Of a stretch of DNA of 64,000 bases, positions 31,245 to 34,068 are shown in pieces. A model generated the notes under the pieces. It was not told the DNA's origin and made no database searches. It saw only the letters and a list, made by a program, of their open reading frames with translations. The position numbers and the translations under genes are program-made. This DNA comes from an uncultured Mycoplasmatota bacterium. GTDB taxonomy: Bacteria; Bacillota_I; Bacilli_A; RF39; UBA660. The DNA is taken from assembly GCA_948434005.1 (NCBI GenBank), contig CAOJEH010000001.1, forward strand, positions 155,880 through 219,879. The letters run 5' to 3'. Positions within the stretch are counted from its first letter, which is position 1. Each line of letters begins with the position of its first letter.

Positions 31245-34068
31245 TTATAAAAAAATAGAGGCAAAATGGCAAAAAAAATGGGAAGATGAAAAATCTTTTG
31301 TAGCAGATAATAATAGTACGAAGGAAAAATATTATTACTTAGTGGAGTTTCCTTATCCATCAGGTGCTGGACTTCATGTTGGACATTGTAGAAGTTATAC
31401 AGCTTTGGATGCTCTAGCTAGAAAAAAGAGGATGAATGGTTATAATGTTTTATTTCCAATGGGATGGGATGCTTTTGGAGCACCTGCAGAACAATATGCT
31501 ATTAAAAATCATATTCATCCAAGTGTAGCAGTTAAAGAAAATATTAAAACCTTCAAAGGACAAGTTAAATCACTAGGTTTATCAATAGATTGGACTAGAG
31601 AGTTTTCAACAACAGATCCAGAATATTATAAGTGGACTCAATGGCAATTTTTAAAATTCTTTGAAAAGGGTATGGCTTATAAAGCAAAGAAAAATATTAA
31701 CTGGTGTCCAAATTGTAAGATGGGTCTTTCTAATGAAGATTCATCAGGTGGAGTATGTGAAAGATGTGGTCATTCTGTTGAACAAAGAGAAAAAGAACAA
31801 TGGATGCTTAGAATGAGTGATTATGCAGAAGATTTAATCAAAGGATTAGATGATACAGACTTCCAAGAAAGAATAAAAACTGCTCAAATAAATTGGATAG
31901 GTAAATCTGAAGGTGCAGAAGTTAACTTTAAAGTAAAAGAAACTAATGAAGATTTAGTAGTATATACAACAAGACCTGATACTTTATATGGGGTTACTTT
32001 TATGGTAGTTGCACCTGAACATCCTATAATTGAAAAGAATAAAAATATTATATCTAATATGGATGAAATTAATTCTTATAAAGATGCTGCTAAAAATAAA
32101 ACAGAGTTTGAAAGAACTCAAGTAAATAAAGATAAAACAGGAGTAAAAATAGAAGGATTAACTGGAATAAATCCTATTACTAAAAAAGAAATTCCAATAT
32201 ATATATCAGACTATGTAATGATGAATTATGGTACAGGGGCTATTATGGCAGTGCCTGCTCATGACGAGAGAGATTTTGAATTTGCTAATAAGTTTGGAAT
32301 TGATATAATTCCTGTAATAGAACAAATTACAGGAACTCCTAGAGATGATGAAAAGAAGAAAAACAGTATAGTTGCAGTTTTATTTGATGAGGAAAACAAT
32401 AAATATTTAACTATTAATTGGGGTAATCTAGGAGGAAGATTATTTGTAGGCGGTACAAGAAAGGATAATGAAAGTCCTCTTGAATGTGCAATAAGAGAAA
32501 TAAAAGAAGAAACAGGATATACCGATATTACTTATATGCATGATATTTTCCCTATAAATCATCATTATTATGCTCATAATAAGAACCAAGCTTATGAAAT
32601 TGAATCTACTGGATTATTATTTAAGTTAAATAGTAATAAAAAAGTAGAAGTAGAGCTTGATGATGATGAAAAGGATAATTTTAAAGTTGAATGGGTAGAT
32701 AAAAATAAAATAGAAAAAGAAGTAGTTGATGAATTACATATTACTACATTTAGAAATTTACTAAAACCTACTGCATACATAGCGGATGGTAAAATGGTTA
32801 ATTCTGATATTCTAAATGGATTAACTAACAAAAAAGATTCTATAGAAAAAATGTTAGAGTATTTAGAAGAGAATAATCTAGGAAAAAGAAAAACAAATTA
32901 TAAACTTCAAGACTGGATTTTTTCTCGTCAAAGATTTTGGGGAGAACCTATTCCTTTAGTTCATTGCAAAGATTGTGGTTGGGTTGCAGTAGATGATAAA
33001 GATTTACCTGTAACTTTACCAGAAGTAGTTAACTATGAACCTACAGATGATGGAGAAAGCCCTCTAGCAGCAATTACCGATTGGGTAAATACAACTTGTC
33101 CTAAATGTGGTAATCCTGCTAAAAGAGAAACTGATACAATGCCAAACTGGGCAGGATCTTCATGGTATTGGCTAAGATATATGGATGCTCATAATGATAA
33201 AGAATTTGCAAGCAAAGATGCTTTAAAATATTGGGGTAAACTAGACTTTTATAATGGTGGAATGGAGCACGCAACTAGACATTTATTATATGCAAGATTT
33301 TGGAACCAATTTTTATATAACAATGGATTAGTTCCTAATAAAGAACCATTTAAAACTAGAGTATCACACGGAATGATTTTAGGTGAAGGTGGCGTAAAAA
33401 TGTCAAAATCACTTGGAAATGTAATTAACCCTAATGATATGATAAAAGAGTACGGAGCAGATGCACTTCGTTGTTATGAAATGTTTATAGGAGACTATGA
33501 AAAAGAAGTAGCATGGAGTGAACAAGGACTTAATGGTTGTAAAAGATTTATAGATAAAATAGTACGTATTGGAGATAAGTTATCTAATGATACTTCATAT
33601 ACAAAAGAATTAGAAAGTATAATTCATAAAACTATTAAGAAAGTTACAGAAGATATTGATAATATGAAATTTAATACTGCTGTATCTGCTCTTATGATTC
33701 TTTTAAATAAATATGAAGAACAAGATAAAATAACTAAAAAAGACTATAGAACATTCTTACTTTTATTTAATCCAATCGCTCCTCATATAACAGAGGAACT
33801 AAATGAAAAATATGATTTAGGTGAACAATTATGTAAGAGTAGTTGGCCAACTTATGATGATGAAAAAACAATAGATGAAGAAAAAGAAATAGCTGTTCAA
33901 GTAAATGGTAAAGTACGTGCTACTATGAAAATTAGTATTAATGAAGATGAAGAAGAGATAAAGAAAAAGGCTCTAGCTTTAGAAAATGTTATAAATCATA
34001 CTAAAGATAAAGAGATTATAAAGGTAATCGTAATAAAAGGTAAGATTGTAAATATAGTAGTTAAGTAA
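31237..34068 (+). CDS. leuS: Leucyl-tRNA synthetase carrying an inserted Nudix-hydrolase-like domain
   Basis: HIGH-type motif (LHVGH), the editing-domain TTRPDT and [12 protein letters not shown] segments, [20 protein letters not shown], and KMSKS. 943 aa. A ~147-aa insert (nt 32323-32763) contains a perfect Nudix box [24 protein letters not shown]. Confidence 0.9.
   Translation: [943 protein letters not shown]

Follow-up and report, generated by a model that had tools for sequence, protein, structure and literature searches.

A Nudix domain embedded in the editing domain of a leucyl-tRNA synthetase from gut Bacilli

Introduction

Aminoacyl-tRNA synthetases with extra domains are known, and so are Nudix hydrolases; bacterial synthetases are usually seen as domain-poor beside the eukaryotic ones. 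Here we describe a Nudix domain that lies inside a bacterial synthetase. The protein is the leucyl-tRNA synthetase (LeuRS) of an uncultured, low-GC gut member of the Bacilli, and its gene, leuS, is located in a 64,000-nucleotide stretch of contig CAOJEH010000001.1, which was analysed as a whole and is referred to below as the window.

The synthetases are a main cellular source of diadenosine tetraphosphate (Ap4A), which Nudix enzymes degrade asymmetrically (PMC10148737). The Nudix hydrolases of diadenosine polyphosphates (ApnA), i.e., NUDT2, including its part in the LysRS-Ap4A-NUDT2 axis, the lupin and C. elegans enzymes, T. thermophilus Ndx1, and E. coli RppH/NudH, are separate proteins, whereas the domain described here is within the synthetase. 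Its similarity to them is at the level of the superfamily (12-22% identity), and none of the models specific for ApnA hydrolases or RppH recognised it. The decapping enzymes Dcp2, NUDT20, flax-rust AvrM14, and g5R of African swine fever virus are eukaryotic or viral and act on m7G caps; the insert is without their Box A/B or regulatory domains, and its scores with them exceed those with other Nudix classes by a few bits. A comparable domain organisation is that of the isoleucyl-tRNA synthetase (IleRS) recognised by the NCBIfam 'exception' model NF040702 (ileS_w_GNAT), likewise a class-I editing synthetase with an extra small-molecule enzyme domain. In that case, however, a GNAT domain is the guest of IleRS, and the window protein, with 82 bits against a cut-off of 1999, is not a member.

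LeuRS of Patescibacteria (the candidate phyla radiation, CPR) contain the same Nudix family (above 100 bits with profile A5, which was built from 19 insert rows) at the same canonical site, after VPAHDxRDxxFA-x10. They differ from the window protein in that two or three copies are often present, with additional sites occupied, together with HAD, alpha/beta-hydrolase, or Ham1 domains, and in that their inserts resemble what we call type B and share 23-30% identity with the window insert, which is of type A; the host of the window LeuRS, moreover, belongs to the gut Bacilli. A full-text search of open-access papers and preprints returned no description of a LeuRS-Nudix fusion or of any other synthetase-Nudix fusion, in agreement with the first-pass annotation of the window, made from the sequence by a model, which had not recognised the architecture as a described one. 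Hundreds of such sequences are already present in public databases, where they have automatic Pfam tags and go by generic names such as 'class I tRNA ligase family protein'. The embedded LeuRS-Nudix architecture and its synthetase-associated Nudix family appear to be undescribed.

Results

A Nudix domain replaces a surface loop of the LeuRS editing domain

The leuS gene (31237..34068, + strand, as are all window features below) is one uninterrupted open reading frame (ORF) with an ATG start, and codes for a 943-residue LeuRS of the bacterial type with an insertion. The product scores 941 bits against TIGR00396 (leuS_bact; cut-off 548.4), the match being split in three stretches because of the Nudix insert. 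Pfam matches are to tRNA-synt_1, tRNA-synt_1_2 (PF13603, the editing domain, residues 219-372), NUDIX (residues 378-494), and Anticodon_1. The length and the motifs quoted at first pass were borne out when the DNA was re-read: the HIGH signature of the synthetic active site, here HVGH (residues 47-50), is at 31375-31386, the editing motifs TTRPDT and VPAHDERD are at 31966-31983 and 32251-32274, and the KMSKS loop (residues 721-725) is at 33397-33411. The class-I signatures HIGH and KMSKS and the CP1 editing motifs (T-rich TTRPDT, GTG, and AHD..D) are all found in the protein and are invariant in alignment A1. Motifs of the synthetic site and of the editing site are thus both intact. The leuS locus is syntenic with three related loci (L034, L043, and L003), with 77-84% nucleotide identity in the flanking genes, and the gene is, as judged within the 64-kb window, the housekeeping orthologue at its relatives' leuS locus. 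The GC content of the insert (26.8%) is similar to that of the leuS body (30.0%) and that of the window (25.7%).

To define the insertion, LeuRS sequences from 77 species-representative genomes were aligned. An extra 145-153 residues, all at one single site, are present in 32 of them; the remaining 45 have a short loop there (FGIDIIPVI(E/K)-GGDISKEAY-TGDGKMINS). In the window protein, the insertion is 147 residues long (residues 363-509; 32323..32763), and the coordinates given at first pass agree with the alignment boundaries to within a few residues. The insert replaces a CP1 loop of about nine residues. In solved structures of T. thermophilus LeuRS, the CP1 editing domain spans residues 224-417, and the sequences flanking the insert align to residues 224-367 and 375-433. 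Comparison with a LeuRS structure consequently puts the insert inside CP1, at a surface loop between residues approximately 366 and 375 of the T. thermophilus enzyme. The N-terminal part of CP1 comprises residues approximately 222-362 of the window protein (31900..32322; PF13603), and the C-terminal remainder, which also aligns with insert-less relatives, comprises residues 510 to approximately 548 (32764..32880). The nearest insert-less protein, P0030, has 800 residues.

Three trivial or mobile origins of the insertion were considered and ruled out. An assembly artefact is incompatible with the existence of more than 100 protein clusters of 940-949 residues with the same architecture, which come from independent samples (gut metagenomes and metagenome-assembled genomes (MAGs)) and are labelled Bacilli, Tenericutes, or 'Clostridium sp. 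CAG:417'. An intein is ruled out by the junctions (VIE/QITG and RNLL/KPTAY), which are not intein-like (N-terminal Cys/Ser; C-terminal His-Asn followed by Cys/Ser/Thr), and by the fold, which is Nudix and not Hint. Mobile DNA resembling insertion sequences or miniature inverted-repeat elements is ruled out since neither terminal inverted repeats nor a target-site duplication were found at the insertion boundaries, where just short AT-rich repeats at chance level are present. A perfect 10-nt inverted repeat, 32309-32318 / 32326-32335 (TTCCTGTAAT / ATTACAGGAA), spans the 5' boundary; in sequence as AT-rich as this, chance alone would yield approximately one repeat of the kind (a rough estimate), and we attach no meaning to it.

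The inserted domain is conserved and under purifying selection

With residues 363-509 alone, the Pfam NUDIX hidden Markov model (HMM; PF00293) gave 43.8 bits (E 3e-11), and within the full protein it gave 39.1 bits, the gathering cut-off being 21.1. The Nudix box (32452..32520), re-read from the DNA, fits GX5EX7REUXEEXGU exactly, as had been claimed; its residues are G406-x5-E412-x7-R420-E421-I-K-E424-E425-T-G427-Y428. Among 28 inserts of both types, which are 23-87% identical overall, G406, R420, E421, E424, E425, and Y428 of the box are invariant, and E412 and G427 are nearly so.

Conservation was also followed across the wider family (see below), in 102 copies of the domain. The metal-binding glutamates (ExxEE) are retained in 101-102 copies, and so are K449 and W486. 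Downstream of the box is the X-loop region NHHYYAHNK (32557..32583), with the aromatic pair Y444/Y445, A446, and K449; an [FY][FY] pair at positions +16/+17 after the box occurs in approximately 95 of the 102 copies. Twenty-one copies depart from the box at one or more positions, the box Arg varying in 17 and the first Glu in 17, mostly in extra copies within multi-insert proteins. The first-pass annotation had described the domain as intact rather than decayed, and this description holds: the insert scores as Nudix, and its homologues keep the REx2EE glutamates.

Structure prediction was successful for the insert and not for the whole enzyme. When run on the 19-insert alignment, AlphaFold2 returned an alpha/beta/alpha sandwich Nudix fold with high confidence (predicted local distance difference test (pLDDT) 94.1, predicted template modelling score (pTM) 0.88), while the full-length LeuRS model was poor in the catalytic core (pLDDT 68.8, pTM 0.49). 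The best structural match of the predicted fold is 2azw, a free-standing Enterococcus faecalis MutT/Nudix protein from structural genomics, with 16% identity to the insert.

Pairwise dN/dS values were 0.05-0.30 for the insert and 0.03-0.17 for the LeuRS body. We conclude that the insert is under purifying selection. The fold, the conserved catalytic residues, and the purifying dN/dS mark the insert as a domain that is functional and probably catalytic.

The insert varies among close relatives and has been exchanged by recombination

The distribution of the insert is patchy: it is found in many gut Bacilli proteins, and some close relatives of the window are without it. Locus L034 is syntenic with the window, with approximately 84% nucleotide identity over 26711-32318 and 32785-34068, and is without just the insert and the ORF downstream of leuS (34091-35317, described below). 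The insert-less LeuRS P0030 and that of L034 are 93% (N-terminal part) and 85-87% (C-terminal part) identical to the body of the window LeuRS, and are thus closer to it than almost all insert-bearing proteins. In a neighbour-joining tree of the LeuRS body, insert-bearing and insert-less sequences interleave. Two insert types are found at the one site, type A, which includes the window insert (box GGTxxxxE...REIxEETGY), and type B, 23-30% identical to type A; these are also intermixed on the LeuRS body tree. The insert-less L034, P0030, and L043 retain the ancestral loop, and their flanks resemble those of insert-bearing relatives. In the window's clade, repeated short-tract gain and short-tract loss fit these observations equally.

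A recombination tract was revealed by comparison of the window with another insert-bearing locus, L001. A sliding-window comparison gave 83-91% nucleotide identity from residue approximately 331 to approximately 585, and 43-80% in most other windows. When summed, identity was 86.1% inside the tract and 70.7% outside (p=6e-17). The tract (residues 331-585; 32227..32991) comprises the Nudix cassette with approximately 30 residues upstream and approximately 75 residues downstream. dS between the two loci was 0.49 for the insert and 2.08 for the LeuRS body, and L001 clusters with the window in the Nudix tree and not in the body tree. No excess conservation of the same tract was seen in seven other pairs tested. 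Taken together, the identity tract, the dS contrast, and the tree conflict indicate that the cassette with its flanks was transferred by homologous recombination; both loci are on MAG contigs, and a possible assembly chimera in L001 would need two crossovers and a donor that is itself just approximately 86% identical to the window. We conclude that the Nudix cassette has moved by homologous recombination in at least one lineage.

In a separate comparison, leuS of 'Clostridium sp. CAG:417' (L002) was 81% identical to the window leuS at the nucleotide level, and the flanking genes were merely 67-72% identical. Either leuS is unusually conserved in this pair or the entire gene was exchanged between lineages.

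The same Nudix family occurs in and next to other synthetases

An exhaustive search of 1.84 billion representative proteins with profile A5 yielded 3726 matches at E<=1e-3, 367 at <=1e-10, and 54 at <=1e-30. A protein search with the insert only had returned five fragmentary or chimeric proteins, which reflects the word index and not rarity, since full-length and HMM searches find hundreds. Two short metagenomic proteins, P0003 and P0005, in which an unrelated N-terminus is joined to the C-terminal half of a Nudix domain at the REIKEETGY box, probably arose by chimeric assembly across a conserved stretch of nucleotides and do not represent new architectures.

The best 150 of the 3726 matches were classified with our own LeuRS and Nudix HMMs. 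Most of these 150 are LeuRS or fragments of LeuRS, several with two or three Nudix copies at differing sites. Copies were found before CP1 (LeuRS profile position approximately 208-218; P0126, P0127, P0130, and P0183), in an early CP1 loop (approximately 235-241; P0131 and P0273), at the canonical site 360, either single or in tandem (tandem in P0137), and in the C-terminal half, at positions approximately 64 and approximately 109 of the C-terminal LeuRS profile (P0149 and P0143). The family therefore has about five insertion sites in LeuRS. A search seeded with P0183 showed the multi-insert proteins to be LeuRS of Patescibacteria (Taylorbacteria, Nomurabacteria, Parcubacteria, and Paceibacterota), 945-1558 residues long; the taxa that share the insert, which had been asked about at first pass, thus include the gut Bacilli and the Patescibacteria. 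Many Patescibacterial LeuRS also hold HAD, alpha/beta-hydrolase/Ser_hydrolase, or Ham1-like domains. Five of them, 1200-1558 residues long (P0290, P0323, P0335, P0285, and P0330), contain up to three Nudix domains in addition to a HAD phosphatase, an alpha/beta-hydrolase/Ser_hydrolase, or a Ham1-like domain, and one such protein is named 'alpha/beta fold hydrolase' by NCBI. In Patescibacteria, LeuRS seems to act as a general scaffold into which hydrolase domains are inserted.

The family is not restricted to LeuRS. P0240 (locus L096 2906-4837) is a true class-II prolyl-tRNA synthetase (ProRS; TIGR00408, 586 bits) whose anticodon-binding domain and C-terminal ProRS domain are separated by an inserted Nudix domain of the same family. 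P0253 (1318 residues) is of the M17 leucyl-aminopeptidase type and has two GNAT domains and two copies of the same Nudix family. Free-standing proteins of approximately 280 residues (P0243, P0275, P0161, and P0168) consist of a degenerate CP1-like domain with an inserted Nudix, the degeneration being evident in motifs such as LVPLHIQEH, where LeuRS has AVPAHDERD. The gene for P0243 (L094/L095 4001-4864), which recurs on more than 24 contigs with lengths of up to 300 kb, has a CYTH (triphosphate tunnel) gene 13 nt ahead of it and a class-IV aminotransferase gene behind it. Further members are free-standing proteins of 150-200 residues. In the Nudix tree, which is weakly resolved, free-standing copies are intermingled with inserted ones, and the copies of a single LeuRS are not closest kin, which suggests repeated insertion events.

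Genes adjoining the free-standing members were then inspected. The gene for P0278 (L082-L085) is followed after 87 nt by thrS (TIGR00418, 589.5 bits) and then by miaA; that for P0145 (L086) is preceded by tsaD and followed after 5 nt by valS (766.7 bits); that for P0158 is followed after 2 nt by a leuS with its own Nudix insert; and that for P0204 (L090/L091) is followed after 3 nt by an insert-less leuS (945.9 bits). P0227 is encoded in a cluster with metG and leuS. P0166 adjoins fpg and spoU and not a synthetase gene, and for P0195 there is no synthetase on its short contig. Overall, a synthetase gene is the very next gene in four of seven informative contexts, with three different synthetases represented, the P0158 and P0204 contexts being related and not fully independent. 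Synthetase genes make up an estimated 2-3% of genes in small genomes, and the observed frequency is therefore far from chance. The upstream free-standing genes are the 'Rosetta-stone' counterpart of the fusion. We conclude that the family is repeatedly fused to, or adjacent to, genes for LeuRS, valyl-tRNA synthetase (ValRS), threonyl-tRNA synthetase (ThrRS), and ProRS.

On one Patescibacteria-like contig, L092, a generic MutT-like Nudix gene (5976-6413, 145 residues) lies 4 nt upstream of leuS. Its product reaches just 14 bits on the family profile; the true member, P0227, is encoded 2 kb further upstream.

Genes flanking leuS in the window

Upstream of leuS is a 137-residue ORF (30831-31244) with hydrophobic stretches and no Pfam match, which overlaps the leuS start region by 8 nt. 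Twenty-two nucleotides downstream of leuS, a 408-residue ORF (34091-35317) codes for a PPP-family metallophosphatase (Pfam Metallophos, 39 bits). Its PHROG match is to a NinI-like Ser/Thr phosphatase, and its top NCBIfam match is to the symmetrical Ap4A hydrolase ApaH, although the score, 27.8 bits, is far under the cut-off of 176. None of the six syntenic relatives compared has the gene, which makes it a lineage-specific addition. The presence of a possible second Ap4A-type hydrolase adjoining the Nudix-LeuRS may be a coincidence.

Discussion

We tentatively propose that the insert is an active pyrophosphohydrolase that clears Ap4A or Ap4N made by the synthetase, a reading that we regard as plausible and still short of probable. 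Ap4A and other dinucleoside polyphosphates had been named as possible substrates at first pass, and what we found is consistent with this. Enzyme-bound aminoacyl-AMP would be attacked by ATP or another nucleoside triphosphate (NTP), yielding a dinucleoside polyphosphate (Ap4A/Ap4N). The Nudix domain, a putative Mg2+-dependent pyrophosphohydrolase that is tethered to, or co-expressed with, the synthetase, would destroy this side-product of adenylate chemistry by cleaving it to ATP/NTP and AMP.

Several observations point in this direction. Since the family occurs at about five insertion sites and also as a separate neighbouring gene, exact geometry is probably unimportant, and the substrate may be a diffusible small molecule rather than a tRNA end held in the editing site. 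The tie of the family to LeuRS, ValRS, ThrRS, and ProRS suggests a substrate that is common to synthetases and not leucine-specific. When the Protein Data Bank (PDB) was searched with the profile, AvrM14, Dcp2, and NUDT20 came first (E 5e-7 to 3e-6) and Ap4A hydrolases further down, so that, as far as sequence comparison indicates, cleavage of bridged polyphosphates is the activity of the closest characterised relatives. Among Nudix enzymes, the decapping clade is adjacent to the ApnA clade, and both recognise bridged polyphosphates (Srouji et al., PMC5389931). Specificity is associated with the X-loop approximately 17 residues downstream of the Nudix box (PMC5389931), where the family has its conserved aromatic pair, and in ApnA hydrolases a conserved X-loop tyrosine stacks on adenine (Dunn 1999, summarised in PMC5389931). 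Direct action on aminoacyl-adenylates, which was also raised at first pass, is unlikely on chemical grounds because an adenylate is an acyl-phosphate with a single phosphate and not a nucleoside diphosphate-X.

Other observations count against Ap4A/Ap4N clearance. The ApnA tyrosine signature is matched loosely, via the [FY][FY] pair, which is suggestive as a candidate counterpart of Tyr87 of human NUDT2. On the RppH models (PRK00714; cut-offs 116-259), the insert scores 15-16 bits and its free-standing relatives 17-26, the approximately 26 bits at the upper end being reached by P0278 and P0145; the MutT model TIGR00586 gives 16.2 bits against 97.9, and the NudB model NF006961 gives 27.4 against 103. 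The margins separating Nudix classes are just a few bits, and the function of the top structural match, 2azw, is listed as undetermined (PMC5389931). Absence of the insert from close relatives marks it as accessory, and the HAD, alpha/beta-hydrolase, and Ham1 domains of Patescibacterial LeuRS fit a general house-cleaning picture equally well.

That picture is the strongest rival, although we consider it rather unlikely. Here the domain would be a general hydrolase for the nucleotide pool or for metabolite damage, lodged in loops that tolerate it, in an abundant protein with constitutive expression, or else placed in the operon of that protein, for the sake of expression in streamlined genomes, and would have no chemical link to leucine activation. 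The additional HAD phosphatase, alpha/beta-hydrolase/Ser_hydrolase, and Ham1-like domains in Patescibacterial LeuRS of up to 1558 residues belong, as Nudix does, to the classic house-cleaning families. The many and varied insertion sites, the lack of the insert in close relatives, the location of free-standing P0166 beside fpg rather than a synthetase gene, and the occurrence of the family in a multi-domain M17 peptidase/GNAT protein all agree with this. However, the association spans four synthetase specificities and the two synthetase classes and extends to separate genes, which is narrower than 'any abundant protein', and repeated in-frame internal insertions need strong selection for physical linkage.

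It is less likely still that the domain is an RNA-end hydrolase similar to RppH or Dcp2, which would strip pyrophosphate or a cap (NAD, Np4A) from the 5' end of tRNA-Leu or from other RNAs. The 5' end of tRNA-Leu adjoins the CCA end that is bound by CP1, and all the host proteins bind tRNA acceptor ends. The top PDB sequence and profile matches are the decapping enzymes Dcp2, AvrM14, NUDT20, and g5R, the best NCBIfam matches of the free-standing members are RppH models, and Pfam Nudt16-like matches occur in tandem-Nudix relatives. Yet the RppH scores are far under the cut-offs, and the many positions of the domain, which include class-II ProRS and separate genes, show no conserved geometry toward the tRNA 5' end. 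RNase P processing, moreover, leaves mature tRNAs with a 5' monophosphate.

A protective role in microbial conflict, through hydrolysis of a nucleotide-type synthetase inhibitor or removal of a toxSAS-type pyrophosphate from the tRNA 3'-CCA, appears improbable. Patchy distribution combined with recombination and purifying selection is typical of accessory or conflict traits, and both the location of the insert in the CCA-binding domain and the ties of the family to several synthetases would suit such a role. Nevertheless, PADLOC gave just a weak generic Nudix match (PDC-S07, 21 bits), the PHROGs matches were generic Nudix ones, and no toxin or immunity genes were seen adjoining the loci examined. 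If a 3'-pyrophosphate were cleaved by Nudix, a blocking 3'-phosphate would remain, and the known adenylate-mimic antibiotics have sulfamoyl or phosphoramidate links and no pyrophosphates. Finally, a non-catalytic module, i.e., a structural, ligand-sensing, or protein-binding Nudix fold that modulates LeuRS, is very improbable: non-enzymatic Nudix domains exist (PMC5389931), and some second or third copies in multi-insert LeuRS have the REx2EE Arg or the Gx5E Glu replaced, but the full box is invariant in the window's clade and the metal-binding glutamates of the wider family are almost universally kept, which would be unexpected for pure structure.

A broader proposal, which we consider unlikely, is that the family is a transferable Nudix 'cassette' for synthetases, one that has been inserted in frame many times (at about five sites in LeuRS, in ProRS, and in tandem), interconverts with free-standing genes just upstream of leuS, valS, and thrS, and is swapped between alleles by homologous recombination. 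It would constitute an unrecognised accessory layer of synthetase function, which might be an obligatory destruction of Ap4N alarmones or caps at source, or else a defence against toxins or antibiotics whose target is the tRNA acceptor end or the adenylate site.

The presence of a second, Nudix domain inside the proofreading domain of an essential synthetase exemplifies a pattern that is widespread in the Patescibacteria and the gut Bacilli and has gone unannotated. Annotation pipelines downgrade such LeuRS to 'class I tRNA ligase family protein' or even 'alpha/beta fold hydrolase'. The presence/absence polymorphism and the recombination tract provide a rare view of the gain, loss, and exchange of an enzyme domain inside an essential gene. 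If the domain does carry out degradation of the Ap4A type, the main producer of Ap4A would be physically coupled to its destroyer; this would bear on the old question of whether Ap4A acts as a signal or arises through damage, and the natural insert-less allele would give a clean experimental system.

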